This document shows positions 7,995 through 39,699 of a stretch of DNA of 64,000 nucleotides, piece by piece. A program made the translations under genes and the position numbers. The notes under the pieces are model-generated. The model ran no database searches. It saw nothing but the letters and a program-made list of their open reading frames with translations, and was not told the DNA's origin. The stretch's first letter is position 1; each line of letters opens with the position of its first letter. Origin of the DNA: a virus (lineage: Duplodnaviria; Caudoviricetes). The DNA is taken from the IMG/VR virus record IMGVR_UViG_3300044556_000025, positions 1-64,000 of that record; one strand, given 5' to 3'.

Positions 7995-10040
7995 GTGATG
8001 TACATGTATAAGATACATACAGAGACGCCTGAATATGTCGTAATGTCTTCCGACTTTAGTCAGCAAGAGCCTAGGCTTCTTGCATTCTGCGCTCGAAGCC
8101 AAGAGCTTATTGAAGCCTTTAAACAAGGTAGAGACATTTATTCGACAATTGCGGCTATCGCATATAACATGCCTTACGAAAAATGCCTCGAATTCAACCC
8201 AGACACAGGGGAGTATCAACCAGACGGCAAAGCTCGCAGAAGCGAAGCTAAGACAATTGTACTTGGCATTGCTTACGGTCGTTCTGTCCCGTCAATTGGC
8301 GAGCAGCTTTTTAGTCACAACGATGAAATGTCAGACGAAGACAAAACCAAAGAAGCTCAGCGCATTTACGATTCTGTAATGAAAGCTTTCCCAGAACTCG
8401 AAGCGTTGATGAAGAGCGCTCAGGCATACGCACGCAAGCACGGGTACACAGAGACAATCCTCGGTCGTCGGCGCCATCTCCCAGATATGACGCTCCCTGA
8501 GTTTGAGTTTAAGCCTCTGCCGGGATACGTTAACCCTGACATTGACCCGCTAGATTTGTCAAGTCTTGAAAACGCAGAGACAGGAATCCCTGAGTCTAGA
8601 ATTAAACAGCTAGAGCAAGAGTTTCATAAGTATAAGTATTTCGGTCAGATTGCTAGGCGTACCAAAGAGCTTTACGAGAAAGAACACATTAGAGTTATCA
8701 ACAATAGACCGAAGATAAACGATGCTCGTCGGCAGTGCGTAAACTGCGTAGATGACGAAACAGAGATACTGACATTAAACGGATGGAAGACATTTGACAA
8801 AGTTTCAAAAGGCGACGAAATAATTTCTTACAATTTAGGCAAGAACTGTCTAGAGCGTGACGTTGTGAACGAAGTTATCAGTGAAACCTCTGATGACGGC
8901 TTTGAGTTATATCATATGTACAACAAGAACTTCAATTCTATGTCCACGCTAAACCACCGTTGGGTGACGAGAACTGACGACGTAAACGATAGAAAGTATC
9001 GAATTTACGATACTTCGCATCTTGTGAGCGTAAAGAACCCCCGCTATCAAATTCTTCGAATTGCCGATTATGAATGCGAAGATAATTCACAGTTTTTTGG
9101 GAAAGTTGAATTTGTATGCGAGTCTATTTTCAAAAACAGTATTTCGTATAGAGACATATTGTCTTTGAGTGGCAGCTTTGCCAAAAAGTGCTATAGCTGG
9201 ATTTTCGATAATAAGTCTGCCCGCGGAGCTGTTGTTGTGAAAGACAAAGAGGTAGCAAGCAAGCTACAAACTTTGGGCATTTTAGCAGGAAAAGTTTGCA
9301 ACGTAAACGAAACAGTTTCTGTCGACGGAACTTCTTCTTATAGAGTTTCATGGTCTGAAATTAACAAGCCGTATAACGATGTTGCTAGGATAAAGTCTCT
9401 TAAGAAAGAAAAAGTTTCTAGAAACCACGTATGGTGCGTTTCGACAAACAACGGAACATGGGTTGCTCGTCGTTCGGGGACGTGCTTCATAACTGGAAAC
9501 TCTATTATTCAGGGTTCGGCAGCTGACTTTACTAAAATGGCATTACTAAAGCTCTGTCGAGATCCTAGATGGGAAGCGTGCGGCGGCGAGATATTAACTG
9601 TAGTACACGATGAAATCATTGCTCAAGCCCCTGTCGATTTCGCAGAAGAAGCTGGCAAGGTACTGCAGTCTGACATGGAAGGCGCCGGCTCTTTTCTGCC
9701 GTTCCCGATTAACTGCGATGTTACAACGACATACCGCTGGTACGGTCTAGAAATTCCTTGTAAGTTCGATGTACCTACAGACTTAAGCTTAAACTCTGAA
9801 AACGATCTTTCTTGGGTACAGTGGCATCTAGTCGAGATGGGGTTCGAGCTCCCTAATTTCAAAGACAAAAACGGAAACGACCCTATCGGCGATGCGGCTC
9901 ACGGAGTTTCAGGACAATTGTCAGATGAAATGATTAAAGCTATTGAAACGTACTGCGATCGTTATCATATCAGTAAGGACAGTTTCATAGATGACATTAG
10001 GCAACGTGTTGAAACTGGAATAGTAGAAAGGGCAAGTTAA
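7995..10040 (+). CDS. polA: Family A DNA polymerase, C-terminal half (motifs A/B/C), with intein
   Basis: DFSQQEPR, RSEAKTIVLGIAYG, IQGSAAD, VHDE. Confidence 0.92.
   Translation: MMYMYKIHTETPEYVVMSSDFSQQEPRLLAFCARSQELIEAFKQGRDIYSTIAAIAYNMPYEKCLEFNPDTGEYQPDGKARRSEAKTIVLGIAYGRSVPSIGEQLFSHNDEMSDEDKTKEAQRIYDSVMKAFPELEALMKSAQAYARKHGYTETILGRRRHLPDMTLPEFEFKPLPGYVNPDIDPLDLSSLENAETGIPESRIKQLEQEFHKYKYFGQIARRTKELYEKEHIRVINNRPKINDARRQCVNCVDDETEILTLNGWKTFDKVSKGDEIISYNLGKNCLERDVVNEVISETSDDGFELYHMYNKNFNSMSTLNHRWVTRTDDVNDRKYRIYDTSHLVSVKNPRYQILRIADYECEDNSQFFGKVEFVCESIFKNSISYRDILSLSGSFAKKCYSWIFDNKSARGAVVVKDKEVASKLQTLGILAGKVCNVNETVSVDGTSSYRVSWSEINKPYNDVARIKSLKKEKVSRNHVWCVSTNNGTWVARRSGTCFITGNSIIQGSAADFTKMALLKLCRDPRWEACGGEILTVVHDEIIAQAPVDFAEEAGKVLQSDMEGAGSFLPFPINCDVTTTYRWYGLEIPCKFDVPTDLSLNSENDLSWVQWHLVEMGFELPNFKDKNGNDPIGDAAHGVSGQLSDEMIKAIETYCDRYHISKDSFIDDIRQRVETGIVERAS
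8745..9500 (+). mobile_element. Intein (252 aa) in Pol-C with a degenerate endonuclease remnant
   Basis: CVDDETEILT, TLNHRW, VWCVST..ITGN|S. Confidence 0.9.
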
Positions 10041-11926: not shown

Positions 11927-13831
11927 ATGACTAATCTCGCTCTTAAGTATCGTCCTAAGTCGTTCGAAGACGTAGTAGAACAAAGCGACGTAGTAAAGAT
12001 TCTAGAGTCTATGTGCGAGCAGCCGGAGCTTCACAATCGCAATTTCTTACTTGTCGGACCTCGAGGGTGCGGAAAAGCTAACCCTATGTATACAAATATC
12101 CTTACGCCTAGCGGGTTCAAAAAGATGGGTGATATTGAGATAGGCGATAAGGTATTCACGCATTCAGGAAGAGTAGCTATCGTTTCCGGTGTTTACCCTC
12201 AGGGAGTAAGACCTATATATAGAATCAGCTTAGCTGACAAAACGTATATTGACGTGTCAGATGAACATCTCAATATGATAACTGTATCTGATCGCACGTC
12301 TAGTAAGACTATTTGTGAAGACAAAATTATAAAGACCATTAATCTTTTTGAAGCCTATAAAAATAGTGATGCGTTCAAAGATTTCACGATATGCGTAAAA
12401 ACTCCTAGAGTTGACTTCGACAAATGTGACGTATTGTGTCCCCCGTATACGTTTGGAACGCTTATTAGGAACGGTGGTTTCGACGATACAGGGATACCTG
12501 AAGAGTATCTGTTTAATACGTTCTACTATCGAATCGATCTACTCAAAGCCCTACTGTATACTGACTACGTAGACAACAAGAGCTTAGCTAGTAGCAATAT
12601 TTTGAAAGGCAAAATGACACTGTTTTGCAATGGTGAAGCTTTGTCTTCTAGTATATCTTTTCTTGTTAGATCTTTAGGGATTGTAGACACTGTATATGAC
12701 TATTCACACTACATGAGTAACTTCGATATTGACGCAGACATCATCCGAGGAGGTCAGTTTGAGTTTGCGCATGTTCTTCATATTCCAAAAGATATTGTGA
12801 GCCTCATATTCGAGCCTGACAAAATTCTAGACGAAGACAATTACTCGCTGTTGCGGGAGATAACTTCTGTAGAGTACATCGGTGAAGAAAATTGTCAATG
12901 TATTATGGTTGACGATCCAGATCATTCATACATTTGTGATGAAGGGTTCATACCTACTCATAACACAACACTCGGTCGAATCATGGCCAACAAGCTGAAT
13001 AGCGGCTTAGGGTCCCCTATAGAGCTCGATGCTGCATCCAATAGCGGTGTTGATACTGTTCGTAATATAATATCTCAGGCTCGAGAGTACCCTATTGGGA
13101 CGAAGTACAAAGTTTTTATTTGTGACGAATGTCACGCATTTAGTCAAGCCGCCTGGTCCTCTTTGCTAAAGACTTTGGAAGAACAGCCAGCACGTAGCGT
13201 ATTTATCCTTCTAACAACTAACCCTGAGAAGATACCGCAAACTATACTCTCTCGAGTTCAAAAGTTTCGTCTGTCGACTATCAGCTTAGACGGAATTGTG
13301 AGCAGACTTAAGTATGTTATAGAGCAAGAAAACAAAGAAGGTCGCAACATAACATACGAAGACGAAGCGCTTACATATATTGCAAAGTTGGCTAAAGGAG
13401 GTATGCGTGATAGCTTAACGCTTCTGGACAAAGCTCTTGTGTATAGCAACGACATTACGTCTTCTAACATCAAAGTGTCTTTAGGAATACCTGATTATCA
13501 AGACTACTTCGACCTTCTAAACGCATATGCCAAGAAAGACAATTTGAAGACAATCGAAGTAGTTCAGAAGGTTTATAACTCTGGAACAAACTTCGTAAAA
13601 TGGTTCGAAGAGTTCCAGTCGTTTGTGATAAACATCGTTAAGTACGTTTATCTACAAGACATTAGTGAAACTATGATTCCGCCATATTACAAAGACAAGA
13701 TTTCTCATTATGGACCGAAACACGTTCAACTTTGTCTTCATCTTTCGCAAGTTCTAGTCGAGTTGATATCTAAAATTTCTAGGACAGAGTACATGGAAGA
13801 AGTAGCTATCTCGTACCTTATGAGGAAGTAA
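11927..13831 (+). CDS. dnaX: Clamp loader gamma/tau subunit with intein
   Basis: LALKYRPKSFEDVV, GPRGCGK|TT, ELDAAS, DECH, LLKTLEE, TILSR, GGMRD. Confidence 0.93.
   Translation: MTNLALKYRPKSFEDVVEQSDVVKILESMCEQPELHNRNFLLVGPRGCGKANPMYTNILTPSGFKKMGDIEIGDKVFTHSGRVAIVSGVYPQGVRPIYRISLADKTYIDVSDEHLNMITVSDRTSSKTICEDKIIKTINLFEAYKNSDAFKDFTICVKTPRVDFDKCDVLCPPYTFGTLIRNGGFDDTGIPEEYLFNTFYYRIDLLKALLYTDYVDNKSLASSNILKGKMTLFCNGEALSSSISFLVRSLGIVDTVYDYSHYMSNFDIDADIIRGGQFEFAHVLHIPKDIVSLIFEPDKILDEDNYSLLREITSVEYIGEENCQCIMVDDPDHSYICDEGFIPTHNTTLGRIMANKLNSGLGSPIELDAASNSGVDTVRNIISQAREYPIGTKYKVFICDECHAFSQAAWSSLLKTLEEQPARSVFILLTTNPEKIPQTILSRVQKFRLSTISLDGIVSRLKYVIEQENKEGRNITYEDEALTYIAKLAKGGMRDSLTLLDKALVYSNDITSSNIKVSLGIPDYQDYFDLLNAYAKKDNLKTIEVVQKVYNSGTNFVKWFEEFQSFVINIVKYVYLQDISETMIPPYYKDKISHYGPKHVQLCLHLSQVLVELISKISRTEYMEEVAISYLMRK
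12077..12964 (+). mobile_element. Ala1 (class 3-like) intein, 296 aa, in the Walker A motif
   Basis: K|ANPMYTNILTPSG, DEHLN, CQCIMVD, PTHN|T. Confidence 0.88.
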
Positions 13832-13832
13832 T

Positions 13833-14381
13833 ATGAAAATTTCTGACATTGAAGAATCTTTCAAACAAGACTTCGAAGATCTTGACGGGTGGGTAGATGA
13901 TAAATACCGGTCAGACTTCGGTACATATTTTACAAACATTCGAAATCTTTATGATCGTATGCAAGACGAGACTCGTCCTATCACTGACAAAGAGCTCGAA
14001 GAAATCTTAACAAACGTCCCTCTACAGATGTTCGCAGTGTCTGAGAAGCTTAATCAACTAAAGTCTAAAATTGAAGTTATCAAATTGCGTGTGAAAGAAA
14101 AGCGCCGTCAAGCTTATCTAGACAGCGAAGAAGTTACTGTCTCTAAGAAGACGAGCGAAGCAAACTTTGCGGTAGCAAACGACGAATTACTTATTCGTCT
14201 CTACTCTGACTTAGCAGACCGAGTTACATCTGAGATTTCATCGTCTAAAGAGCTTATTATGAGCGCAAAGAAGATATGGACGTCTAGACGAGAGGCTGAA
14301 AACGTTGCAAACGCTGCTCAAAACGTCGAACTTCCAGACTACGTAAACAACGACTATCAAGATAAAACATATATCAAGTAA
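13833..14381 (+). CDS. Helical protein, possibly a UvsY-like recombination mediator
   Basis: Coiled-coil character; directly upstream of RecA. Confidence 0.45.
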   Translation: MKISDIEESFKQDFEDLDGWVDDKYRSDFGTYFTNIRNLYDRMQDETRPITDKELEEILTNVPLQMFAVSEKLNQLKSKIEVIKLRVKEKRRQAYLDSEEVTVSKKTSEANFAVANDELLIRLYSDLADRVTSEISSSKELIMSAKKIWTSRREAENVANAAQNVELPDYVNNDYQDKTYIK

Positions 14382-14400
14382 TCAAGAGATTGGAATTAAC

Positions 14401-15534
14401 TTGAGCGCATTCGACGACATCATTAAACAGAAAGAGCGTGACTGGAAAGCTCCAGATATGATGGACCCTTCAAGCCGAGGCGAAAAGATACCGTTTAGCT
14501 CGCCACTAGTTAATTGGGCAACATATGGTGGCATCCCTCGTAATAAGATTACTGAGTTCTTCGGGCAGCCCTCCGGGGGCAAGAGCACTACGTCCATTGA
14601 CATTTGTAAGAACGCCGAAATAATGTTTCAGAAGGAATGGGAAGAAGAGTGCATTCGTCTTCGAGAGTCTGACAAGAAAGAAGACAAGTATAAGCTTGCA
14701 GATCTCGAGGATTCTGGGCCTCGCAGAATTCTATATCTAGACCTAGAACATTCGTTCGACACCGAATGGGCAAAGACACTGGGCGTAGACAAGACGAAGA
14801 TCTCTATTATGCAGCCGCCTGACGTCCCTGCAGAAGAAATCCTTCAGATGGTACAAGAGATGATTGAGTCCAACGAGGTAGGTCTTATTGTTCTAGACTC
14901 TATTCCTTCTCTAGTTCCAAGGTCTGTTCTCGAGAAGAAGATTGGCGAGCGAACTGTCGCAAGCTTAGCTGGAATCATGGACGTATTCATGAAGAAAACA
15001 ACACAGCTGCTTATGCGATACAGCACTACGTTACTCATGATTAATCAGATTCGCGACAATATGGATAACCCATATGTTGTAAACACTCCCGGCGGTCAGG
15101 CTGTCAAGTTCTTCTGTAGCCTTCGAATGCAGTTTACGCTTGGCAATCCTATTGACTTTGTAGGAAACGAACTCCCTGTGAAGACAGAAGATCCTGCGGG
15201 TTACGTCATTAAGGTTCGAATTGCAAAACAGAAGTCTGCCCCTAATGACAGACGCAACGCTTCGTACTTCTTACTTAATCAGTCAGGAATTAAGCCAGAA
15301 ATGGATTATGCACAGCTAGCTATTAAGAAGTACGGAATCATCAAGAAAACTGGTGCCTGGTTCACTATCTGCAACCCCGAAACCGGTGAAATTCTAGAGG
15401 AAGAAGAGACTGGTAAGCCCGTAAAGCTTCAGGGGCTTCCTCGCGTATACGATTATATAGAGACGCATAAGTCATATTTCGATGCACTTAAAGAATACAT
15501 AGAAAACGACATAAATAATAAGAACGAAGTATAA
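14401..15534 (+). CDS. recA: RecA/UvsX recombinase
   Basis: GGIPRNKITEFFGQPSGGKST, DLEH, VLDSI, INQIR, TPGG, GAWF. Confidence 0.95.
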   Translation: MSAFDDIIKQKERDWKAPDMMDPSSRGEKIPFSSPLVNWATYGGIPRNKITEFFGQPSGGKSTTSIDICKNAEIMFQKEWEEECIRLRESDKKEDKYKLADLEDSGPRRILYLDLEHSFDTEWAKTLGVDKTKISIMQPPDVPAEEILQMVQEMIESNEVGLIVLDSIPSLVPRSVLEKKIGERTVASLAGIMDVFMKKTTQLLMRYSTTLLMINQIRDNMDNPYVVNTPGGQAVKFFCSLRMQFTLGNPIDFVGNELPVKTEDPAGYVIKVRIAKQKSAPNDRRNASYFLLNQSGIKPEMDYAQLAIKKYGIIKKTGAWFTICNPETGEILEEEETGKPVKLQGLPRVYDYIETHKSYFDALKEYIENDINNKNEV

Positions 15535-16016
15535 TGTCAGCACATGGTACAAAATACTATTCAGATCGTCAAGAAAAGATGGTTGCTTCGTACCTTACGT
15601 CTGAATTCTTGCCTTGGCATCAGGTAACTGGTAGCGGCTCTCGTCCGAATTTGCTAGGTGATGTTGTATGTGAGTCGTGGCTCGGGGAGTGCAAGACACA
15701 CGAAAGGCGAACAGACAAAGTAACGTTCGTTTTTTCTGTCGTAAACAAAATAGATGTAGAAGCTATATCGAGCTTTAAGAAGTTTGCTCTGTTTGTAGAT
15801 GACGGGTCACAATTATCTCAGAACACGGCAGTTTTGTTCAAATCTGAAATAAATAAAGACACAAACACTATTGATGTTAACGACAAGTCGTCTATAAGGC
15901 TTTCTATCAAGGAGATAAAAGAAAACGAGCCGATATATCTACTCAGGGGCAATTCGTTATACGAAGTAGTAACACTTTCTACGTTTAAATATTTACTAGA
16001 CGGGCAAGAAATCTAA
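15534..16016 (+). CDS. Holliday junction resolvase-like PD-(D/E)XK nuclease
   Basis: QE..VA, GSG, GDV, ECKT. Confidence 0.75.
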   Translation: MSAHGTKYYSDRQEKMVASYLTSEFLPWHQVTGSGSRPNLLGDVVCESWLGECKTHERRTDKVTFVFSVVNKIDVEAISSFKKFALFVDDGSQLSQNTAVLFKSEINKDTNTIDVNDKSSIRLSIKEIKENEPIYLLRGNSLYEVVTLSTFKYLLDGQEI

Positions 16017-16901
16017 ATGTTGTCTATCTTAGACATAGCAAAAGACATACAATCCGGGTCGCTAAGGAAATGTTACTTCTTTACCGGCCCGGATTATGGT
16101 GTTAAGCTTCAATATCTTAATACGTTTGCTACTATGTGTGACAATAACGTCCAAGAGCTAGACTCATTCGAGTCTGCGCAGAATTTGTTGTCTAGGCGAA
16201 CGCTTATACCTAGACCAAAAACTGAATACATTATCAGATATAGTCAATTTTCTGACATCAAAGGCTGCAATCTGTCTAGTTTGAAATTCTTTGGGACTAT
16301 TGTATGTATAGAAGACAGCGATGACCTAGAGAGCAAAATTAGTAAATTGTATCCGAAAAACACTGTCAGATTCAATCATTTGACTCCTACAACGTGCTTC
16401 AAACATCTATCTTCTAACTACTCTAAACTTCCGACAAGGCTTTTAGAGTGTATTTCTAGGTGGGACGTAGACTATTTAGACGCTTGCAATATGTGCGAAG
16501 CTCTCTCTGCGTTAGACACAAATATGCTGTCAACAATGAATGAGCTGGACATAAAGAAGTTGTTCGACTACAATAACTCGTACGCGTCTCAACGACTTAA
16601 GTCTGCCGTATTAGCTCGAGACTTTAGATACGCAATTAGACAAGTGGACTTATTCGATGAAGATGTCTCGTTCTTGTTTTATGACATATTGTCTTCGTAT
16701 CTAGATATAATTAAAGTTTTAGAGAAACCTTCGTATTCTTCTTACGCAAAACAGTATTCTAATAGGTGGACACTTTCTTCTGCAAAATATATGTACAGAA
16801 TAACGTTCGACCAGTTAAACAAAATAAGGATGTATCCTAATTACGATCCAAAAGACGCACTGATTTACGTATTAGCTTTACTTCAATTTAGGGTAGGCTA
16901 A
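16017..16901 (+). CDS. Clamp loader delta-like subunit
   Basis: DIQSGSLRKCYFFTGPD resembles the HolA N-terminus; context. Confidence 0.65.
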   Translation: MLSILDIAKDIQSGSLRKCYFFTGPDYGVKLQYLNTFATMCDNNVQELDSFESAQNLLSRRTLIPRPKTEYIIRYSQFSDIKGCNLSSLKFFGTIVCIEDSDDLESKISKLYPKNTVRFNHLTPTTCFKHLSSNYSKLPTRLLECISRWDVDYLDACNMCEALSALDTNMLSTMNELDIKKLFDYNNSYASQRLKSAVLARDFRYAIRQVDLFDEDVSFLFYDILSSYLDIIKVLEKPSYSSYAKQYSNRWTLSSAKYMYRITFDQLNKIRMYPNYDPKDALIYVLALLQFRVG

Positions 16902-16902
16902 C

Positions 16903-17673
16903 ATGGATTTAGGGTTTCAAGAATTTGCGTTAGAAAGACTTAGATACATAGCTAAGAACGATAATCATAGTGTTCTTATATCTGGCATTCGAGGCTGCGG
17001 GAAGACATATCTTGCAAGCTGTTTTGCAAAGATGAAAAATATAGATACGTTTCACTCTGTTCAGCCAAAAATTTCAGAGATACGAAACGCGCTAGATGAC
17101 AGCTATAGTCTAGATGACAATCAAGTTATCTGTATAGAGAATCTAGATGATGGTGTAGTAGCAGCTTCGCAAGCGTTATTAAAGTATCTAGAAGAGCCAC
17201 GTAAAAATACCTATGTTATAATAACGTGTGTAAACGAAGCTAGTTTAACAAACACAATACCTAGTCGGTCAATTTCTGTTCACGTCAACCCTCCGTCTAA
17301 TAAAGACTTGTCTGCTTATCTCAATAGGGTGTGCCCAGACCCTAAGAGAGTAGAAGGCAGTGTCGCATTCGAAAGCTGCAAGTCAATATCTGATGTCAAG
17401 TATTTGTCTACGTTAGACTATACAAAAGTTAGATATTACGACAAGTTTGCGACAAACGCTTTCTTTAAAAAATCGACAGATTCTGTTTTATGGGAGTTGA
17501 CGCACTACGAAGATAACTCTAAGTGCGATCCGGTATTAGCTCTAAGGTGCGTTCTAGCTGGTGAATGTGATTACAATCTAAAGCTCAATGCTTTAGATTC
17601 GTTAATCGTATTAGAGTCTAAAAGATGCTCGGAGTATTCTGTACTTGGAAACTTTGTTACATCAATAAGGTAA
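16903..17673 (+). CDS. Clamp loader delta'-like subunit
   Basis: HSVLISGIRGCGKT, ALLKYLEEP, TIPSR. Confidence 0.8.
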   Translation: MDLGFQEFALERLRYIAKNDNHSVLISGIRGCGKTYLASCFAKMKNIDTFHSVQPKISEIRNALDDSYSLDDNQVICIENLDDGVVAASQALLKYLEEPRKNTYVIITCVNEASLTNTIPSRSISVHVNPPSNKDLSAYLNRVCPDPKRVEGSVAFESCKSISDVKYLSTLDYTKVRYYDKFATNAFFKKSTDSVLWELTHYEDNSKCDPVLALRCVLAGECDYNLKLNALDSLIVLESKRCSEYSVLGNFVTSIR

Positions 17674-17718
17674 GAAAGATCTTACATTTACATTCGTTAT
17701 TGTCGTTCTAAAGAAGGG

Positions 17719-18741
17719 TTGTTGATGAAACAGGGCTGGGACGTTCCATTTAGATACGTATTTTCTGGCAGTCTAACAAACAAAATGCACGATATGTTGT
17801 TAGACACTAAAGACTTCGAGCCTATCGACATGCTCGTGGCCTGTCACGAGACCTCCGCTATTAAGCAAGTAACTCAGTGGCGCAAAGAAGGCTTCTGCCG
17901 CTGGCTATTCTGCGATTCTGGGGCGTTCAGTGTTCATACAGGCAAGAAAAACATCTCTCAAGAGGATTACATACAATTTATCAACGAGAATAACGACAAC
18001 TTCGATATTTTCGCTCAGTTGGATACAATCCCTGGAAAATACAAACAACCGAAGAACCCCGAAGACTATGTAGAGTCTGCAGATAAGTCTTGGGAAAACT
18101 TCTTGTATATGCGAGAGCACGTCAAAGACAAGAAAAAGATAATGCCCGTATATCACTTCGGCGAAGATACAAAGTATTTAGAGAGGATGCTCGAATACGT
18201 AGACGCTGACGGAGATCATCTAGACTATATCGGACTTTCTCCTGCTAACGACGCATCCGTAGACGCTCGTATGAATTATCTTGACGACATGTATAAAATA
18301 ATTGCAAAGTCGTCAAACCCAAACGTAAAGACGCACGTATACGGTTTCACTAGTCTTACTGCTATGTCAAAGTTCCCATGTTATAGCGCAGACTCTATTT
18401 CACATAGGCTAGTGTCTGGGTACAACAAGATCTATACCGAAAACTTTGGAATCATTTCTCTTTCTAAGCTCCCTAGGTCTTCTAAGACGAAGTCTAACCT
18501 GAGCTTCTTGGAGTCCGCAGACGAATATAATCTTTCAATCCTTCGATCTGAGATCGAGGGTTATGGAATGAATGTAGACTTTGCAAAGAAATATGGGTTT
18601 GAAGGATACGACATTCTAGATTATTTGTCAGAGTGCAACGACGCACGTGTTACGTTTAACGTTCGATCTATACAGCACCTTGCGTACACGAAATATCAGT
18701 ATTACGAAAACAATATTGTCCGCAACAGAAAGCTATTCTAG
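17719..18741 (+). CDS. TGT-fold base-exchange enzyme (DpdA-like)
   Basis: DSGAFS, QLDTIP, PVYH, YIGL, HVYG, YSADS. Confidence 0.78.
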   Translation: MLMKQGWDVPFRYVFSGSLTNKMHDMLLDTKDFEPIDMLVACHETSAIKQVTQWRKEGFCRWLFCDSGAFSVHTGKKNISQEDYIQFINENNDNFDIFAQLDTIPGKYKQPKNPEDYVESADKSWENFLYMREHVKDKKKIMPVYHFGEDTKYLERMLEYVDADGDHLDYIGLSPANDASVDARMNYLDDMYKIIAKSSNPNVKTHVYGFTSLTAMSKFPCYSADSISHRLVSGYNKIYTENFGIISLSKLPRSSKTKSNLSFLESADEYNLSILRSEIEGYGMNVDFAKKYGFEGYDILDYLSECNDARVTFNVRSIQHLAYTKYQYYENNIVRNRKLF

Positions 18742-22748: not shown

Positions 22749-23678
22749 ATGAGCGACAACGAAGAAAATATCGATTACAACGACGTCATAAATCGCATAA
22801 AGAAGATATACGCAGAGTGCCAGCCTTCTGATAAAGTAATACTCAAAAAGATACTTCAAGAAATATCTGATACTGGGTACTCTGACACGTACAAAAATCT
22901 TTGGCTTGCAGATTATAAGGAGATTCCCGTTGACAAATATACGTTCTTGACTGACCCGTACTACCTCGGCGGTACAAACAACAACGGAAAATCCATCTAC
23001 CCCGCATGGATGAATACAATGTTGGAACTCGAGCGAACCGGCAACAAGTACTACGAAATAGTGTTTACTGGTGCAACTCGTACAGGTAAAACGTCAACGG
23101 CTGTATCTGACTGTGCATACAACCTATATAAGCTTATGTGTCTAAAAGACCCACAGAAGTACTTCGGTCTGAAGTCTGTAACAACAATATCTATATTTTT
23201 CTTCAACTTGACGGAAGCTTTAGCTAAAGGCGTAGCTTATAGGGAGTTTAATTCTACGCTGTCTTTGAGCCCTTGGTTCATGGATCACGGTAAAATGTCT
23301 AATAGCACAGTAGTCCCTACATATCTCCCAGATAACAATTTAATAAGGATAGAATTTGGATCTGGCGCAAGTCAGGCGTTAGGAAAAGCCACGTACTGCA
23401 TTGTAGGGTCCACAGAAATTCTAACAGATACAGGATATAAACAAATTAAAGATCTAGTGGGCAAAGACATTAAAGTTGGACAGTATACTCCTGATGGCGA
23501 ATTAATATTTGTACCTGCTTGCGCAATATTTACTAAATATGCAGTGGATACGATTCAAGTGGAATTAGAAGACGGAACAATTATTGAAGGAACACCAGAT
23601 CATAAAGTTCTTCTAACTACAGGTAACTACAAAGCGCTTCAAGATTTAGATATTGATGATGAAATTCAAACTACTTAA
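22749..23678 (+). CDS. terL: Terminase large subunit N-part + split intein N (IntN 23397-23675, 93 aa)
   Basis: FLTDPYYLG, Walker A GATRTGKT, then CIVGSTEILTDTG..EGTPDHKV..*. Confidence 0.9.
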   Translation: MSDNEENIDYNDVINRIKKIYAECQPSDKVILKKILQEISDTGYSDTYKNLWLADYKEIPVDKYTFLTDPYYLGGTNNNGKSIYPAWMNTMLELERTGNKYYEIVFTGATRTGKTSTAVSDCAYNLYKLMCLKDPQKYFGLKSVTTISIFFFNLTEALAKGVAYREFNSTLSLSPWFMDHGKMSNSTVVPTYLPDNNLIRIEFGSGASQALGKATYCIVGSTEILTDTGYKQIKDLVGKDIKVGQYTPDGELIFVPACAIFTKYAVDTIQVELEDGTIIEGTPDHKVLLTTGNYKALQDLDIDDEIQTT

Positions 23679-23808
23679 ATTTACACGGATATCCAAAAAT
23701 TGTAGCCTCTATAATAACATGTTTATATATATAAAGGGATTCAGAAATTCAAAACAGTATGCGTCATTAGATAGAAAAATAATTAGAAAAGATATTGATG
23801 AAAATTAA
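23656..23808 (+). CDS. 50-aa basic ORF bridging the split-intein halves (possible endonuclease remnant)
   Basis: MMKFKLLKF...RKDIDEN* is open and overlaps both the IntN stop and the IntC start. Confidence 0.45.
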   Translation: MMKFKLLKFTRISKNCSLYNNMFIYIKGFRNSKQYASLDRKIIRKDIDEN

Positions 23809-25219
23809 ATCAATTAAACATATAAAACATTCTGAAAGTGTCCCTGTATACGACATTATAAATGCTGATCCATACAATAATTTTGTAGTTAAAGGGCAAA
23901 GTAGCGATGTAGTGCTTCACAACTGCGTTGTGTTCGACGAAGTAAACTTTTCGCAAACAGGCATACGAGACATTAACAAGTCAAAAGCTCGAATGAAAGA
24001 GAAGTACGATACTTTAGTTGCTCGTGTTACTGGCACGTTTGTTAGAAACGGAGAAGTGTTCGGCAAAATATACGTAATTTCTTCTAAGAACTCAGACTCT
24101 GACTTCATGGAAGAGTACGTTCAGAAACAGAAGCGTGCACATAACGAGCATATGTATATATTCGACAAGCCACAATGGGAAGTGTGGCCAAAGTCTAAAT
24201 ATTCGTCTGACAAGATGTTTTACATTGCTTTGGGCGGTAAGAAGTTGAAGAGTTTTGTAGTACCTGACAGTGAGACAGACGAAGGGTTAGAAGAGCTGAA
24301 GTCTCAAGGTTACAAGCTTCTCAAAGTACCCGAGGACAACAAAACTCGATTCTTGACAGACTTTGACATAGCTCTTCGCGACATTGCAGGGATTTCTGTA
24401 CCAGGAACACTTTCGTTCTTTACGCTAGACACAATAAGGCAGTGTACTGGAAGCCGTCAAAACCCGTTCTACAACGATATTCTTCAGATAGGTGTAAACG
24501 ACAACGAGTCAATAGAAGAGTTCTTTCATATAAACGAAGTTAGCAAAGAAGCTAAGAGAAACCCGTCTTTCATACATCTCGACTTGTCGCTAAACACAGA
24601 CAAAACGGGCATCTCAATGGTTTCAATAACTGGGCGGACAGACGTTAAGTCTGGAGATTCAACAATATCTGTTCCTACGTTCGAACACGTATTTTCGGTA
24701 TCACTAGAAGCCCCTCGAGGAGACAAGATACCATATGACAAGATATTAGCTTTCATATGTTGGCTTAGAGCGCAACACTTTAACATCGCTAAAGTAACTC
24801 GAGATCAATTTCAGTCAGAGTATATGGGTCAGCTACTCGAAGCTAGAGGGTTCGATTCGCCTAAAATCTCGCTAGATAGAACTCCCGACGGGTACATGTC
24901 TTTACGTCAAGTTATGCTGGAGCATCGCATAGACATGCTACACGATCAATTACTAGAAGACGAGTTAATCCAGCTACAACGAGACACGGTATCTGGTAAG
25001 CTAGATCACCCTGTGGGCGGATCTAAGGATACGGCAGATTCGTTTGCCGGAGCAGTTTGGGACGCAATTTTATATGACCCAGGAATTAAACTCGATACAA
25101 ACACTACAATTAAAGCTATGAAGTCTGTAAACTCTGTTAATAGGGGGATAGGAGGGAGGAACGTAAACAGCGTAAATAATTTGTTCTTCGGTAACCAATT
25201 TAGAAATTTTGGAAAGTAG
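23795..25219 (+). CDS. terL: Split intein C (23798-23923, 42 aa) + terminase large subunit C-part
   Basis: MKIKSIKH..VYDI..VLHN|CVVFDE (Walker B); nuclease motifs HLDLS, DQFQS, DHP..SKDTAD. Confidence 0.9.
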   Translation: MMKIKSIKHIKHSESVPVYDIINADPYNNFVVKGQSSDVVLHNCVVFDEVNFSQTGIRDINKSKARMKEKYDTLVARVTGTFVRNGEVFGKIYVISSKNSDSDFMEEYVQKQKRAHNEHMYIFDKPQWEVWPKSKYSSDKMFYIALGGKKLKSFVVPDSETDEGLEELKSQGYKLLKVPEDNKTRFLTDFDIALRDIAGISVPGTLSFFTLDTIRQCTGSRQNPFYNDILQIGVNDNESIEEFFHINEVSKEAKRNPSFIHLDLSLNTDKTGISMVSITGRTDVKSGDSTISVPTFEHVFSVSLEAPRGDKIPYDKILAFICWLRAQHFNIAKVTRDQFQSEYMGQLLEARGFDSPKISLDRTPDGYMSLRQVMLEHRIDMLHDQLLEDELIQLQRDTVSGKLDHPVGGSKDTADSFAGAVWDAILYDPGIKLDTNTTIKAMKSVNSVNRGIGGRNVNSVNNLFFGNQFRNFGK

Positions 25220-25226
25220 GAGAGAC

Positions 25227-26840
25227 ATGAGTAATTTAAGAAACTTTCTTAAAGCTGGATCGTTTGTAGAAGTAGTACCTATTGGGGTTCCGCTAGTTGC
25301 AAAGTATCGACCCGAAGGATCTTTTCAGTCTGTTTACTGCCCAGGCCCAGGTCAAACTTACGTAAAAGACTTAGCTGAGATTGTTACATACGATGCAAGC
25401 GTCAATACGGTTTTTGATTCTAGTAAATTTGTTTCAATACTTACGTCAAAGCACCTTATTCCTTCACACGTTAACACTCAAGGCGGAAGCTTAAGCGTTT
25501 TAGGTATGCTCGTTACGTCCTCTATTTATCCTGAGGACGGAGAGATTCCGAAATCGCTTATTGAACAATCTTACAAGCTTTCGTCAACTAAGGCTGATTT
25601 CAAGTTTTTAGCTATAGACGCTTCGTCTAATAACGTTACGTTCGGTAGCGGGATATATGTAAAGAACTGGCTCAAGCTACAATCGTTCGAAACATGCCCT
25701 TCACACATAGTCCCTATCTCTAGCCAATCTTCTATCATTAGTCAATTCTACAGCACTACGGAATATGCAAGTATTCCAATTTACGGATATTATCAAATTG
25801 ACGGGAATATGAATCGATCTTGGTTCGGGAATATGTATCATATCGATACCATCACCGACATGGAGTCTAATTTAGACGCATCTGGTTATCTGCACGAAAC
25901 AATAACTACTCGAAATCACGCGTTGACTGACAGTTATTATCGCTCACACGTAGTATTGAATCTTCACAAGAAAGATAGAGTTATAATAGATGAGTCCAAT
26001 AATAATATAGTGTCTAAATACTATTCTTCTTCAAAATTGATAAACTCTAGTAAGTTTACTTGCAATTGGTGCGGCAAAGAATACGAGATCACAGATGACT
26101 TCACAGTTTGCACTAACCCAAATTGTATGTCTCATAAGTATCCAGATATTGAATATTTCTTGAATCGTATCGGTCTAGAAGATCTTCCTTACGAAAGCTA
26201 CAAAGAGCTCGTAATTTCGAACAAGCTCAAGAAAGTTTCAGATATTGTTAGTTTGTACCCATATTGTGATGAAAAAGTAATGACAACTATTTACGGGTTA
26301 GTCGATGCACTTATTCCAATTTCTGAAGTACGTGGGAATAACAGATCTTCGTTGTCATCCCTTTGCAACGCATGTAACAATAATCCGAAGTCAGTAATTT
26401 ACTATCTTAGTAACACAGACGAAGCTATCAAAGACTTAGGGATAGATCTTTCACCATTTAAACGCTGGCTGTCAAACTCTGTAAATCTTAAAGAGCTTAA
26501 AGAACTATGTGAAGCCGATAACGTAACGCTTCAAGAGTTTGAAACTGATAGAAACTTGGCCCCGATTTTTAGAGGCAAGAAAATTTATATAACTGGCCAA
26601 TTCTCTCATGGTTCTGAATCTCAAATTAAGTCCATACTTAATAGCTACAGTGCAGAAGTTATAGACGTATTTGACAATAGCTGCGACTTAGTTCTAGTAG
26701 GCGACATCAAAGACAGCATTGACGGCAGGTCTATACTTTCCGCTAAAGGGCTAGGTATTCCTGTAGAGGAAGAGTCATATTTCTTTTCCTTATATCAGAT
26801 AGATGATGATCTAAATTCAATGCCTGGTAAGGTGGGTTAA
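25227..26840 (+). CDS. Inactive NAD-ligase (LigA)-like protein with Zn finger and BRCT
   Basis: CNWCG..CTNPNC; BRCT FRGKKIYITG..DLVLVG; KxDG replaced by VPIG. Confidence 0.7.
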   Translation: MSNLRNFLKAGSFVEVVPIGVPLVAKYRPEGSFQSVYCPGPGQTYVKDLAEIVTYDASVNTVFDSSKFVSILTSKHLIPSHVNTQGGSLSVLGMLVTSSIYPEDGEIPKSLIEQSYKLSSTKADFKFLAIDASSNNVTFGSGIYVKNWLKLQSFETCPSHIVPISSQSSIISQFYSTTEYASIPIYGYYQIDGNMNRSWFGNMYHIDTITDMESNLDASGYLHETITTRNHALTDSYYRSHVVLNLHKKDRVIIDESNNNIVSKYYSSSKLINSSKFTCNWCGKEYEITDDFTVCTNPNCMSHKYPDIEYFLNRIGLEDLPYESYKELVISNKLKKVSDIVSLYPYCDEKVMTTIYGLVDALIPISEVRGNNRSSLSSLCNACNNNPKSVIYYLSNTDEAIKDLGIDLSPFKRWLSNSVNLKELKELCEADNVTLQEFETDRNLAPIFRGKKIYITGQFSHGSESQIKSILNSYSAEVIDVFDNSCDLVLVGDIKDSIDGRSILSAKGLGIPVEEESYFFSLYQIDDDLNSMPGKVG

Positions 26841-26842
26841 TA

Positions 26843-28357
26843 ATGCCTCGACGCAGACTATTTGACATAATTTTCCCTAAACGCTCTCAACGAAAGTCAT
26901 ATATTCGAGATCTTGTTACGGGATCTTTTTATCGTACAACAAGTATTAAGTCAAACACAGACTACGAAACGATAAAACAGGAAATCGATACAATGCGGGC
27001 TCTTGCTCGTGATTCCCAGATTTCGACGGCACTGTCATATTATGCTACAGACGCAACCATTCCGAACTCGGACGGAAACATAATATGGGCAACTCCGATA
27101 GACGAAAAGTCTACAAGTGTCGCAGACATTGTAAACGAGCTTTTCAAGCGTTGGAACGTAAATCAGTATGCACGAGATCATATTCTTGAGCTTGCTACCA
27201 TTGGCAATTTGTACATACCTACAACTGACGTTTATAAAGACTTTGCGTCAGGGTATGGCAGTAGAATAAACGTAGCTCTAGACAATAACACATTGCCTGA
27301 CTCTAAATATGACATAGTACCTTCGTACAAGCTTCCGCCAGAATCTATTGTTCATTTATATCATGACGGCATGCCTTATGGGTATGTTATGGACCCGAGT
27401 CAAGACACTGATAGTATTACGTCGTCTCGAACTAGTCAGCCAGTTATATTTCCGGAAGCTTCTATCATACACTTTTCACTCGGTGGTCTTCTAGGCGACT
27501 ATACATATTCGATAGGTAACTCTGACGGGTCATCTGACATATATGACATCAAGTTCGCACAGCCATTGATGGATAAAGCTGCTCAGCCGACGCAGACTCT
27601 TAGCCTTCTCGAAGACGCTATGTTGTTAGCTTCTCTCACAAAAGTAGTACGATTCGTTTCTGTGGACTGCGGTAATACAGAAAACGAAGACGAAATTCGC
27701 CAAACGCTTCAAGAGATGAAGGACACTATCGAGCAACAGTTCTCGATAAACACTTCTAGTGGTGACGCCCAAAGTTATCTTAACCCACAGAGTCCTAACA
27801 ACTTAATTTATATTCCGATGATTAACGGTCAAACGCCTATTTCGATTACAGATTTGAATCTTGCAGACGTTTCAGACTCTGAGAATGAGCTTCTCAATTA
27901 TTATCAAGACAAGAAGCTGTCAGTTCTCGGCGTTCCCAAAGAGGCTATGAACTTTTCGTCTAACGAAGGCTTAGGCGGGGCAGGTTCCGTACTATCACAA
28001 CGATCTGCTCTTTATGCGAATGCTCTTCAGCGCCTTGAGACAGCTTACATGGAGGGCTGGCGAGACGCAATCAACAAGTACTTTATTAATCGCAACCTTT
28101 CGGGATACGCCGATCAGTATAAGCTTCATATGCAGCCTATTGTCACACCTCTGTCTACGGTAATATCTGACAAGCGAGATTCGGCTATCGGACAAGCCTC
28201 TCAAGTAATAGATTTACTGAAATCTGTCGGAGTTAAAGACGTAGATCGGTACATAAAGGCTCTGTCAGAGGTATTAGGTGAAGAGTTCCCTGTAATGTCT
28301 TCTGATACTGCTAACTGGGATATAAACGTAGGGGAGGATGACAATGGGTCCTTCTAG
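26843..28357 (+). CDS. Portal protein (T4 gp20-like)
   Basis: D.QISTAL..YA.DAT, IIHF, LEDAML..R..VDCG, Y.QDK..LGVPK. Confidence 0.85.
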   Translation: MPRRRLFDIIFPKRSQRKSYIRDLVTGSFYRTTSIKSNTDYETIKQEIDTMRALARDSQISTALSYYATDATIPNSDGNIIWATPIDEKSTSVADIVNELFKRWNVNQYARDHILELATIGNLYIPTTDVYKDFASGYGSRINVALDNNTLPDSKYDIVPSYKLPPESIVHLYHDGMPYGYVMDPSQDTDSITSSRTSQPVIFPEASIIHFSLGGLLGDYTYSIGNSDGSSDIYDIKFAQPLMDKAAQPTQTLSLLEDAMLLASLTKVVRFVSVDCGNTENEDEIRQTLQEMKDTIEQQFSINTSSGDAQSYLNPQSPNNLIYIPMINGQTPISITDLNLADVSDSENELLNYYQDKKLSVLGVPKEAMNFSSNEGLGGAGSVLSQRSALYANALQRLETAYMEGWRDAINKYFINRNLSGYADQYKLHMQPIVTPLSTVISDKRDSAIGQASQVIDLLKSVGVKDVDRYIKALSEVLGEEFPVMSSDTANWDINVGEDDNGSF

Positions 28358-33398: not shown

Positions 33399-35126
33399 AT
33401 GATTCGAGAATATATGAAAGAGCGCAAGTGCGTCATTTGCGGTAAAGCGTTTGTTCCTAAGAATCCGAAACAAAAGATGTGCGGCGACGCACATTATCAT
33501 CCATGCCCTGTGTGCGGAAAGCCCGTATTGACAAAGGTGCCTAGCGACATTAATAAGTGTTGTTCTAAGAAGTGCGGGCAAGTTCTTGCTCAAAAGAACA
33601 GAGAAAAAACATACAAGTCTAAGTATGATTCGGATTCTCTTAGTGAAATACAGTCGTCTAAAGTTTACATGAAAACGTGTAAGTGGTGTGGAAAGAAGTT
33701 TAAAACGTCGCATCCTCGCCAAGATTATTGTGGTAACGATTATTACAAATGTCCAGTCTGCGGTAAGTTGACAAAAATAAATGAAGATAGGTCTAATATT
33801 GGAAAAGCGTGCTCGAAAGAATGCAAGCGGAAATTAACTCAAGCTACAAACGAGTCTAAATACGGTAGTAAAGAGATATTCGAATCTAATTATTTTAAAG
33901 AGAAACGCGCTTCTACGTCTATTAAGAAATACGGAGTGGACATACCCTCTAAAAGTGACAACGTTAAGTCGAAGTACAAAGAGACAATGAACTCTATATA
34001 TGGTGTCACGTACCCTTTACAAAACAAAGATATCAAGAAGAAAGTAGAAGAAACAAACAGAGATAAATACGGTTCTGCGTGGCCTATGTCTAACGACGAC
34101 GTAAAAGCAAAAGCTAAGAGTACGTTTGACGAGAAGTACGACGGCATAGGGTTTGGGTCTCGAGCTATCAGAAAAAAGATAAAGTCTTCTCTAATAGAAG
34201 AATATGGTGTTGACAGCCCTATGAAGTCTGATGAGATTAAAGAAAAAGTTATCAAAACTAACTTACAGCGCTATAACTCACAATACTACAATAGTTCAGA
34301 TTATAGATATATGAACTTAGGTATGACGGACAGTCAGATAGGGCTATGGAAATCTTTTAAAGAAGATCCATATCGCTTCATACTTTCATTGCCCGAAGTA
34401 GACAGGCACGTATATAAGCTGTCGCAGATATTTGGAATTTCAGAAACTCCAATACAATGTATTCTTCACGAAAATAACTTATACGAATATATGAACAAGT
34501 CACATTCGTATATAGAAGACGAAGTTTATGATTTTGTAAGGTCGGCTTTGCCACAAAATGTGAAAATAGTTAGAAACGATAGAACTGCTATTAGTCCGCA
34601 CGAACTAGACATATACGTACCAGATTTTAAATTTGCAATTGAAGTTGACCCTACAGCTACACATAACTCTTCGATAAATATATTCGACAAAGAGATAATG
34701 TCACCTTCATATCACAAAAACAAGTCTTTAGCTTGCAAAGACGCTGGAATATCCTTGTTTCATTTGTTCGACTACAACTGGGAAAATAAACGAAGTATCA
34801 TAGAATCAATGATACAGAATCGTCTAGGTGTAAACAATACGAAGTTGTATGCTCGAAATTTGCGAGTTGCGGGGGTTTCGTACAAAGAAAGCTCTAAGTT
34901 CCTACGTGAAAATCATCTTTTGGGCGATTCACAGTCTAGAATTCGTTTAGGTCTATATAATGGAGCAGAACTTGTATCGCTGATGACGTTTGGTATGATA
35001 CGTCCCTCACAAGGACGTCAATCTGACGAAGCAATCGAGCTTCGAAGATTTTGTAGTAAACTTGGGTGTGTGATAGACGGCGGAGCGTCTAAGCTTTTTA
35101 AACACGCTTTATATTTCGAGCCGTAA
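33399..35126 (+). CDS. Hef-like homing endonuclease (Zn ribbons + KYG repeats + PD-(D/E)XK), C-terminally truncated at an IS
   Basis: ELDIY..AIEVD..TH, YAR..FLRENHL.G, ELRRFCS..GGASKLFK. Confidence 0.8.
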   Translation: MIREYMKERKCVICGKAFVPKNPKQKMCGDAHYHPCPVCGKPVLTKVPSDINKCCSKKCGQVLAQKNREKTYKSKYDSDSLSEIQSSKVYMKTCKWCGKKFKTSHPRQDYCGNDYYKCPVCGKLTKINEDRSNIGKACSKECKRKLTQATNESKYGSKEIFESNYFKEKRASTSIKKYGVDIPSKSDNVKSKYKETMNSIYGVTYPLQNKDIKKKVEETNRDKYGSAWPMSNDDVKAKAKSTFDEKYDGIGFGSRAIRKKIKSSLIEEYGVDSPMKSDEIKEKVIKTNLQRYNSQYYNSSDYRYMNLGMTDSQIGLWKSFKEDPYRFILSLPEVDRHVYKLSQIFGISETPIQCILHENNLYEYMNKSHSYIEDEVYDFVRSALPQNVKIVRNDRTAISPHELDIYVPDFKFAIEVDPTATHNSSINIFDKEIMSPSYHKNKSLACKDAGISLFHLFDYNWENKRSIIESMIQNRLGVNNTKLYARNLRVAGVSYKESSKFLRENHLLGDSQSRIRLGLYNGAELVSLMTFGMIRPSQGRQSDEAIELRRFCSKLGCVIDGGASKLFKHALYFEP

Positions 35127-37959: not shown

Positions 37960-39699
37960 TTATCTTCGATATTCGAAAACTTTCTGGCCACAGTCATATA
38001 CAGGAAGCCAGCCGTTTTCTACCATAAGTAGCTCGTTAGACGCGCTTTTACCATAATTCGTATTAAATAGCTGATCATAACCTCTAGCCCTAAGAAGGTT
38101 AGAGGTTATTTTTTGTGAACCTTTAGACCATATCTCCTGGGGCAGCGTATCTTTTAGCTGCGTCATACCTATTTCTGTATATACACTGCCTCTAAACTTC
38201 GATCTATCGCAATAAGAAATAACATTGTTAAACTCGAAGTAATTTGTAACCCATTTGAAGAGCTTAGATGCCCCACCTACAACTTCTATTCTTGACTTAG
38301 CACAAAATCGCAGGAGCTCTAAATCGTAATTTTTGTTATAGCGAGGCTTTCCGAATGTCATAACTTCTACGAGCTCCCCTTCGTGAACTAAACCGACACA
38401 AAACACTTGACCGCGGCACGATCCCTGAAGGTGGTTGTCATTCATAAATTTTCGAGCAACTTCGGGCTTGATTATGTATTTGTCACAATTCCTTGCATAA
38501 ATTACTTTCTTTTTAGCGAGCATACTTACGATTTTGTCTACGTTGTCCCAGTCAAATATATGAATGCACCTAAATCCATTGTCTTCGGCTAGTTTAGTCT
38601 TCTCGAGATGATAATTTTTGTCCAGACCGCTAGGGTTCCAGTGATTACCGATAGTATTATGCGTATATGTCGGGTCAACTTCGATAAGGGTGTTAGAATT
38701 AACTATTTTAATGTCATATTGTTTCGTGCCTATTGCATATTCAAATTCAGTATGAATTCCACTCGATTCAAGTTTGTCAGATACTTTCTTTTTGATAGCA
38801 GATATCCGAAAATGTGACCCATTTAAATACTCTTTTGATTCGACGTAATATGGGGCACCATATCTTTCAGTCATAGTAGCCTCAAGCTTTTTTCTAAACT
38901 CGGGGACATTCATAGCCCTCTTTACGCCGTATCTCCTCACAAACGTATGAGTTATTTTGTCAATAAATTCGCTAGACTTTGAAGTGTTGTCAACGCCATA
39001 GTTGCGAATTAGAGTATTTTTGGCCTTTTCGAACGAGTCTTTGTATGCCGTTACCCTATTTTGTTTAGATCTTTCAGTTATTTCGGGAACTTTCATCGGG
39101 TTAGGCACGCCATATTTCTTAATGTTAGTTTCTTCAGTTTTATGCTTTACAATTGGAGATTGTGTAGCATACGGGACGCCAAATTTGTTCATATTTGTTT
39201 TACGCTTCTTGTTAATAGACGCTTTTGCGGCACAGCTTCTAGAACATCCATACGAAGGAGAAGTACTATTATGAACATATTTCTTACCACATATGGGGCA
39301 TACTAAGTAATGATCCTCGTTGCATATTGTTTGGTTCGCATGTGTAGGCGTAAACAATTTATGGCATATGATGCACTCTTTTTGAGGCAAAGCTATTTTT
39401 TGCTTCTTAGTTCTACAGTTGTCACAAATCTTCTGAGATCCAGACTTTGGCAAGAACTTGTGTCCGCACACTTCGCAAACTCTAGGCTTAAACCTCGACT
39501 GACGAAGTTTCTTCGAACACTCTTTAGAACAACATTTCGGAGGTCTCGTAAAGTCTCGGTCTGTCTTCTTAACAAGTTTCCCACAGACAGGGCAAGGCAA
39601 ATAGTGATCTCTGTCACAATATTCTTTCTGCGGTGAGTTTGTATCGAACGGCTTTCCGCAGCACTTGCAAATTTTGTGATACTTGAATGTCTTGCCCAT
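37960..39699 (-). CDS. Hef-like homing endonuclease (Zn ribbons + KYG repeats + PD-(D/E)XK), full length
   Basis: YDI..LIEVD..TH, NHLQG, GGASKLF, ISYCD, YDCG. Confidence 0.82.
   Translation of the reverse strand: MGKTFKYHKICKCCGKPFDTNSPQKEYCDRDHYLPCPVCGKLVKKTDRDFTRPPKCCSKECSKKLRQSRFKPRVCEVCGHKFLPKSGSQKICDNCRTKKQKIALPQKECIICHKLFTPTHANQTICNEDHYLVCPICGKKYVHNSTSPSYGCSRSCAAKASINKKRKTNMNKFGVPYATQSPIVKHKTEETNIKKYGVPNPMKVPEITERSKQNRVTAYKDSFEKAKNTLIRNYGVDNTSKSSEFIDKITHTFVRRYGVKRAMNVPEFRKKLEATMTERYGAPYYVESKEYLNGSHFRISAIKKKVSDKLESSGIHTEFEYAIGTKQYDIKIVNSNTLIEVDPTYTHNTIGNHWNPSGLDKNYHLEKTKLAEDNGFRCIHIFDWDNVDKIVSMLAKKKVIYARNCDKYIIKPEVARKFMNDNHLQGSCRGQVFCVGLVHEGELVEVMTFGKPRYNKNYDLELLRFCAKSRIEVVGGASKLFKWVTNYFEFNNVISYCDRSKFRGSVYTEIGMTQLKDTLPQEIWSKGSQKITSNLLRARGYDQLFNTNYGKSASNELLMVENGWLPVYDCGQKVFEYRR

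Follow-up and report, generated by a model that had tools for sequence, protein, structure and literature searches.

A phage terminase gene in two parts, with the halves of a predicted split intein at its Walker B site and an endonuclease remnant between them

Introduction

How could a phage make a complete terminase large subunit (TerL) from a gene that is interrupted in the middle of its ATPase site? The question is raised by two adjacent genes of a virus (Duplodnaviria; Caudoviricetes) known from the IMG/VR record IMGVR_UViG_3300044556_000025. This record is derived from a metagenome, contains 92,563 bases and is estimated to be 61% complete; we analyzed its first 64,000 nucleotides (nt), hereafter called the window. 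Gene 1 (22749-23678, plus strand) and gene 2 (23798-25219, plus strand) encode proteins of 309 and 473 amino acids (aa) respectively. Our answer, to which we give a probability of roughly 0.85, is that the only TerL gene detected in this phage consists of two genes carrying the halves of a class 1 intein broken at the canonical place, which would trans-splice to yield a terminase of 647 aa. The anatomy of the two genes, their homology and conservation, the existence of an intein-less allele and the relic of an endonuclease gene between the halves are direct observations, described below in this order except that conservation is treated last.

Anatomy of the locus and identity of the terminase

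The reading frames of the two genes differ (start positions 0 vs 2 modulo 3) and the spacer separating them (23679-23797, 119 nt) has stop codons in all three frames. Gene 1, an intact open reading frame (ORF), is composed of the N-terminal extein of TerL (22749-23396; 216 aa ending with LGKATY), and of the N-terminal intein half, IntN (23397-23678; 93 aa, up to 23675, followed by the stop codon TAA at 23676-23678). IntN starts with Cys1, which is Cys217 of the gene product (23397-23399), and carries the block B motif TPDH (23592-23603). Gene 2 begins at the ATG in 23798 with the C-terminal intein half, IntC (23798-23923; 42 aa, N-terminus MKIKSIKHIKH), in which block F is VYDI (23846-23857) and the last two residues are His-Asn (23918-23923). 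The C-terminal extein follows (23924-25219; 431 aa and the stop): it opens with Cys+1 (23924-23926), the first residue of the Walker B motif CVVFDE (23924-23941), and continues with the remaining ATPase sequence and the predicted nuclease domain. A first-pass annotation, made from the sequence alone, had listed IntN, TPDH, IntC, VYDI, VLHN, Cys+1 and the change of frame, and all of them are present where it had placed them.

Genes 1 and 2 both match terminase large subunit families in a PHROG search (E-values, E, of 2e-8 and 7e-5 respectively). The Walker A motif GATRTGKT is found on gene 1 (residues 108-115; 23070-23093), with residues that are invariant in the alignment of relatives, and Walker B on gene 2, beginning at Cys+1; either gene product taken alone is predicted to lack a complete ATPase site. 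For the C-terminal half of the terminase (C-half) 676 homologues were found, and its identity to the annotated TerL of Listeria phage LIS04, Bacillus phage SP-15 and Bacillus phage HSE3 is 36-39% in a protein-level search. Relatives were reached by this type of search only, a blastn comparison of the locus with 50,697 phage records giving no match. A portal gene (26843-28357, E 1e-11) is located two genes downstream of the terminase, past a ligase-like ORF, and a single TerL C-half was detected in the whole 92.6-kb record. Terminase genes of this group are easily misannotated: the N-terminal half of that of SP-15 is labelled hypothetical protein.

The two intein halves

The residues of a class 1 intein are all found in the two halves, i.e. 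Cys1, TPDH, VYDI, the terminal HN and Cys+1. IntN matches the Ssp DnaE intein (E 4.5e-5); Pfam gave no match for gene 2. For the alignment to contiguous inteins, IntN and IntC were concatenated computationally. The joined sequence aligns end to end with contiguous mini-inteins of 138-151 aa, inserted at the same TerL site in homologues of 772-799 aa, and shares 84 of 135 residues with one of them (P0024). These mini-inteins exceed the intein of the window only by a linker of 3-17 aa, situated exactly at the break; in forms such as P0024 this linker might conceivably stem from an endonuclease tail. A profile built from 13 contiguous inteins of the same family matches Npu DnaE through both halves, block F included (E 7.7e-10), and in this profile alignment the start of IntC is at most about two residues away from the natural break of Npu DnaE.

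A contiguous relative with the same extein junction (L020) was modelled as a HINT domain, with a mean predicted local distance difference test score (pLDDT) of 93.3. The model matches the Npu DnaE intein (template modelling score, TM, of 0.78-0.83; E 8.5e-9), and superposes on the Npu DnaE, Ssp DnaB, gp41-1 and NrdJ-1 inteins with TM values of 0.7-0.84. The break of the window sits in the loop preceding the long hairpin, which is the canonical point of endonuclease insertion: it lies between the N4 and C2/F motifs, and relatives hold HNH or GIY-YIG endonucleases exactly there.

The net charge of IntN is -10, while that of IntC is +1 overall and +4 across its first 12 residues. The first-pass annotation had described an acidic IntN and a basic start of IntC, as in fast split inteins. 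The charges are confirmed but the inference on speed is weak. The polarity negative-N/positive-C is found in DnaE, NrdJ-1 and IMPDH-1 whereas it is reversed in the very fast gp41-1 (Dassa et al. 2009, PMC2677866); thus polarity is no predictor of the speed of splicing.

The predicted product and an intein-less allele

Ligation of the two exteins (216 + 431 aa) would produce a terminase of 647 aa with the junction LGKATY-CVVFDE. The 90% cluster of the C-half includes three members of precisely 647 aa (P0261, P0270 and P0271), which are intein-less alleles. P0261 aligns without any gap to the predicted product and is 99.5% identical to it, the three differences being Y216F, E411K and I625L; its junction therefore reads LGKATF-CVVFDE, with Phe instead of Tyr at position -1. 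Over the N-extein alone, the identity to P0261 is likewise 99.5%. This allele is present on four contigs, the longest of 81 kb. Since P0261 nearly equals the predicted product, near-identical phages bear either the split intein or an empty site, and the empty-site protein corresponds to what trans-splicing would produce. The earlier proposal of a terminase fractured by a naturally split intein, the splicing of which would restore Walker B, gains support here: the intein-less allele has the expected length and, Y216F at -1 apart, the expected junction. Such a near-identical allele also provides a built-in control for the evolutionary series described below.

Two independent IMG/VR contigs, 3300011977_000117 (L005) and 3300021400_001368 (L006), end exactly at the codon of Cys+1 or +2 (at position 2 in L005 and position 3 in L006), and one of the two is 99% identical to the window. 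Contig breaks at the intein-extein junction suggest that those samples contain variants with the intein alongside others without it.

The spacer and the history of the split

With the endonuclease of the relative L030 as query, tblastn on the whole 64-kb window gave exactly two linked matches, 23666-23728 and 23719-23796 (E 3e-7). The spacer likewise matches the tail of the GIY-YIG endonuclease of L042 (E 2e-6). Frame 2 (23666-23728) reads ..YLNLHGYPKIVASIITCLYI and frame 1 (23719-23805) reads ..KGFRNSKQYASLDRKIIRKDIDEN followed by a stop, the C-terminus of the L030 endonuclease being LRLHGYPKIVGSTILTLYKKGFKTSKQYCSLEDKIQRVDV followed by a stop. Because the L030 endonuclease matches exactly there, the spacer is a decayed endonuclease 3' end, namely the last ~43 codons of a deleted GIY-YIG homing endonuclease gene with one frameshift. 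The relic (23666-23808, plus strand) includes the spacer and overlaps the last codons of IntN and the start of IntC; its old stop codon (23806-23808) still overlaps the IntC start (ATG), as in relatives. A 51-codon frame (23653-23808) spans the region from the IntN stop to the IntC start and might couple their translation.

The scan for promoters and terminators detected no terminator-like or strong promoter-like site in the spacer, the region having fewer sites than shuffled sequences; co-transcription of genes 1 and 2 is thus likely. No RNA family, group I and group II introns included, was matched in the Rfam scan of 23200-24200.

In relatives the corresponding endonucleases are GIY-YIG homing endonucleases (phrog_314, E 1e-32; phrog_5123), and their genes are found in several arrangements. 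In L027, L030 and L042 the GIY-YIG endonuclease is fused in frame to IntN, with a stop codon overlapping the start of IntC, and an HNH endonuclease is fused to IntN in P0224 and P0232. L024 has a free-standing gene for a GIY-YIG homing endonuclease of 361 aa between the intein halves; in L012 a GIY-YIG endonuclease gene lies directly upstream of IntC. Another pair of split relatives, L033 and L034, carries an insert of 62 nt, on either side of which the DNA hardly differs from that of the contiguous L036. This insert opens with an ATG that overlaps the IntN stop, and it encodes the first 19 residues of the endonuclease, 10 of which are shared with L030; the match is weak (E 0.04) but the position is right. 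By their sequence L033 and L034 appear to represent a second, independent loss of the endonuclease. When L033:5419-5492 is compared with L036:5392-5500, it can be seen that the insert of L033 carries the IntN stop and that, just past it, one A replaced by G makes a Shine-Dalgarno-like GGAGG out of GGAAG ahead of the IntC ATG.

A repeat search revealed a 12-bp direct repeat, AGATATTGATGA, on the plus strand at 23648-23659 (within the 3' end of IntN) and 23790-23801 (across the IntC ATG), flanking the relic. We considered it as a footprint of the deletion and dropped it: such repeats occur in 6 of the 318 tiles of the window (~2%), and the two copies are in different reading phases.

In the gene-breaking model proposed by Dassa et al., the state of the spacer is step III. 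A single hot spot displays every stage of the route that we propose from a contiguous to a split intein, i.e. the empty site, the contiguous mini-intein, the fused endonuclease, the free-standing endonuclease and the split intein with a remnant. The relic of the window documents a split state that has outlived the element which caused the split.

Recurrence and conservation among relatives

We counted 18 member sequences of the 309-aa form and 21 of the 473-aa form, distributed over more than 25 contigs of JGI, Logan and ENA assemblies; the longest contig has 156 kb. To describe more distant relatives we counted clusters, taking the best 120 homologue clusters of the C-half and the 120 clusters found with the N-half. 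For the C-half, 55 clusters are intein-less (~640 aa), 29 have a contiguous intein and 32 start with IntC. About a quarter of the nearest homologue clusters (32 of the best 120) are therefore split, and the view that split inteins are uncommon, put forward in the first-pass annotation, is not valid for this terminase family. For the N-half, 100 clusters consist of the N-extein and an IntN ending just past block N4, and 9 others run on into an endonuclease.

The catalytic positions are strongly conserved: none of 28 split relatives (44-69% identity) deviates at C217, T282 or H285, the penultimate His is present in 29 of the 32 split C-half clusters, and the terminal Asn and Cys+1 in all 32. Approximately 30 independent IntC genes share the start Met-Lys-Ile-Lys. 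The mean identity to the window is 46% for IntN vs 57% for the extein, IntN being only moderately less conserved. The insertions occupy three adjoining points, before C-h-h-h-D-E (22 clusters), before C-D-E (9 clusters) and after D-E (1 cluster).

Some split C-halves, namely the homologues P0055, P0011, P0044, P0048, P0116 and P0119 (602-637 aa), have a contiguous intein in addition. That of P0055 apparently uses as its Cys1 the Cys+1 of the split one (..VVSHN/CVTGDTEILT.., the slash marking the junction here and below), and two inteins thereby appear to stand back to back.

Proposed mechanism and alternative explanations

To judge from these sequences, the layout is real, and it most likely works. 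What we infer is that both halves are expressed, that they associate and that the splicing chemistry takes place. Genes 1 and 2 are co-oriented and would probably be co-transcribed. Once both are translated, IntN (acidic) and IntC (basic at its head) would pair and fold into one HINT domain; trans-splicing would proceed via Cys1 and Cys+1, with cyclization of the terminal Asn, and the intein would release itself. In the resulting 647-aa terminase, one chain would unite the Walker A of gene 1 with the Walker B of gene 2. As to the history, a contiguous intein at the Walker B hot spot would have been invaded, and hence split, by a GIY-YIG homing endonuclease gene, the later deletion of which would have left ~130 nt of its 3' end as the present spacer.

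Some results weigh against this scheme. The Pfam match of gene 1 to Intein_splicing (E 3e-4) is under the gathering score, and IntC alone gave only chance-level matches against the PDB. The HINT model is that of the contiguous L020 and not of the halves from the window, with 57 residues identical to IntN+IntC. The Shine-Dalgarno sequence upstream of the IntC ATG is weak (AGAAAAG, purine-rich), but several other genes of this phage have no better one. Lastly, the estimated completeness of the record (61%) leaves room for a second, intact terminase gene.

The halves of the terminase might also come together without any peptide bond being formed, either because the intein halves serve as a tight docking module or because the terminase halves associate by themselves. 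There are precedents for this: endonuclease-split phage genes can act as non-covalent complexes, e.g. Aeh1 NrdA (cited in Dassa et al. 2009, PMC2677866), and the PolA gene of the same phage is split at a place where no catalytic intein residues occur. At the terminase, however, all the splicing residues are kept, in the window as in ~100 diverged split relatives, and a mere docking module would not retain C1, T282, H285, the penultimate His, Asn and Cys+1. We thus regard a purely non-covalent assembly as unlikely. It is more improbable still that the split results from an assembly or sequencing error, or that it marks a dead gene of a defective phage. The metagenomic origin and the incompleteness of the record invite this suspicion, but no single-base error yields 119 nt of spacer with a stop in each frame, and the same split proteins were assembled independently on the >25 contigs mentioned above. 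Moreover, both ORFs are intact and conserved, and relatives with 44-69% identity share the layout, as do two cultured phages, SP-15 and LIS04.

The last alternative is a repair at the level of RNA or translation, the spacer being an intron or a segment bypassed by ribosomes, so that a contiguous cis-splicing intein would be made. Related phages do have introns and endonuclease genes in their terminase genes, and in LIS04 the IntN region is interrupted by an endonuclease. Against it stand the size of the spacer (just 119 nt), the lack of an Rfam match, the recognizable protein-coding tail of an endonuclease, the different frames of the halves and the conserved Met-Lys-Ile-Lys start with which gene 2 opens; this is to us the least credible of the alternatives. 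Trans-splicing of a canonically split intein is the explanation that we retain.

A wider proposal is more speculative, and we advance it as a possibility that has somewhat less in its favor than against it. The Walker B site of this terminase family may hold a large undescribed pool of canonical split inteins with Cys1 and Cys+1, amounting to ~100 clusters (90% identity), in which repeated invasion by GIY-YIG or HNH endonucleases, and their loss, would have fixed the split state. After two independent losses, one end of the endonuclease would survive in the window and the opposite one in L033, and the intein would still be gained or lost among terminases that are 99.5% identical. If this is true, and if members are fast and do not cross-react with DnaE or gp41-1, the family would offer both a natural series of gene breakage and new ligation tools.

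Work on protein ligation, labelling and split-protein circuits starts by preference from naturally split inteins. New pairs are of use if they do not cross-react with those already available, and many diverged natural variants with ordinary junction chemistry are found in this family. The suggestion that the window may hold a new orthogonal pair is plausible because the family is only ~24% identical to Npu DnaE.

Other genes and selfish elements of the phage

The interval between the terminase and the portal gene (25209-26840) encodes a protein of 543 aa resembling the C-terminal two thirds of an NAD-dependent DNA ligase, BRCT included (phrog_3869, E 2e-10). Besides this partial ligase-like protein, a full-length LigA is encoded at 54319-56343 (E 2e-153).

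The family A DNA polymerase is likewise distributed over two genes, 5771-7828 and 7995-10040. The first contains a contiguous mini-intein (C...VNHN/T) and the second a larger intein (C VDDETEIL ... ITGN/S). The break between the two genes is just ahead of the motif DFSQQEPR, and no catalytic intein residues were seen there. The clamp-loader ATPase (11927-13831) has a P-loop intein which begins with Ala, not Cys or Ser (GPRGCGK/ANPMY...IPTHN/TT); several PHROG matches to "terminase" in this gene really fall on intein sequence. Selfish elements are thus very numerous in this phage. Of the genes at 33399-35126 (plus strand), 37960-39699 (minus strand) and 48701-50248 (plus strand), two are for large homing endonucleases that contain HNH-type regions (phrog_3339, E 3e-82 and 2e-73) and one resembles a transposase gene (phrog_506, E 2e-93).

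Comparison with known systems

The DnaE inteins of Npu and Ssp are the best matches of the intein of the window in the PDB, by sequence and, through the L020 model, by fold. Like them it is of class 1 with Cys1 and Cys+1, it is broken at the canonical place, and in all of them an acidic IntN of about 100 aa goes with a basic IntC of ~36-42 aa. Unlike them, with ~24% identity, it resides in a phage terminase and not in DnaE, the cyanobacterial DNA polymerase III alpha; its genes are adjacent instead of being at distant loci, and the relic of a homing endonuclease lies between them.

Fractured phage genes with natural split inteins, and endonuclease genes between the halves, were described by Dassa et al. 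(2009, PMC2677866), who reported gp41-1, gp41-8, NrdJ-1, IMPDH-1 and NrdA-2. The terminase of the window resembles these genes: it too belongs to a phage and is broken in place where endonucleases insert, and in its relatives L024 and L012 GIY-YIG genes are present between the halves. It differs in that no more than ~43 decayed and frameshifted codons of the endonuclease gene are left, in a 119-nt spacer. The Walker B site of TerL is not among the canonically broken hosts and sites given in that study, in which the terminase example was the sole exception, broken at an unusual point; it was later named GOS-TerL. With GOS-TerL, AceL-TerL and the consensus Cat-TerL, the intein of the window shares the property of being a natural split intein in a metagenomic phage large terminase gene. 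Those inteins however have an atypical split close to the N-terminus, with an IntN of 25-37 aa and an IntC of 104-122 aa, in contrast to the canonical 93 + 42 aa found here, and the intein of the window falls outside the atypically split GOS-TerL/AceL-TerL group.

A full-text search of the literature (split inteins with terminase, TerL, SP-15 and fractured genes) did not bring up any account of a canonically split intein in the Walker B of a terminase, and no paper on the split terminase intein of SP-15 or LIS04. These two phages are close parallels: SP-15 (KT624200) and LIS04 (OQ999172), genus Thornevirus, have the same terminase family, the same insertion point (GLGRDIF/C...) and the same IntN and IntC motifs. 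The intein is annotated as hypothetical proteins in SP-15 and as partial Hint proteins in LIS04. Unlike the phage of the window both are cultured, with other genes between the halves and further insertions in their loci. The SP-15 terminase (12315-17869) is apparently in at least three pieces: SP15_022, which ends with FFNITLD, is the N-terminal terminase part and holds, at Walker A, a contiguous intein of HNH type; it is followed by a nuclease gene (SP15_023), by SP15_024, which continues the extein and has IntN at its end, by SP15_025, which belongs to no known family, and by SP15_026, which begins with IntC. In LIS04 an endonuclease gene interrupts the coding region of IntN itself.

Split terminase inteins are thus already published, and what is new here is the endonuclease relic serving as the spacer. 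Together with this relic, the size of the family and the near-identical empty allele are the points of added interest by which the locus of the window extends the known systems.

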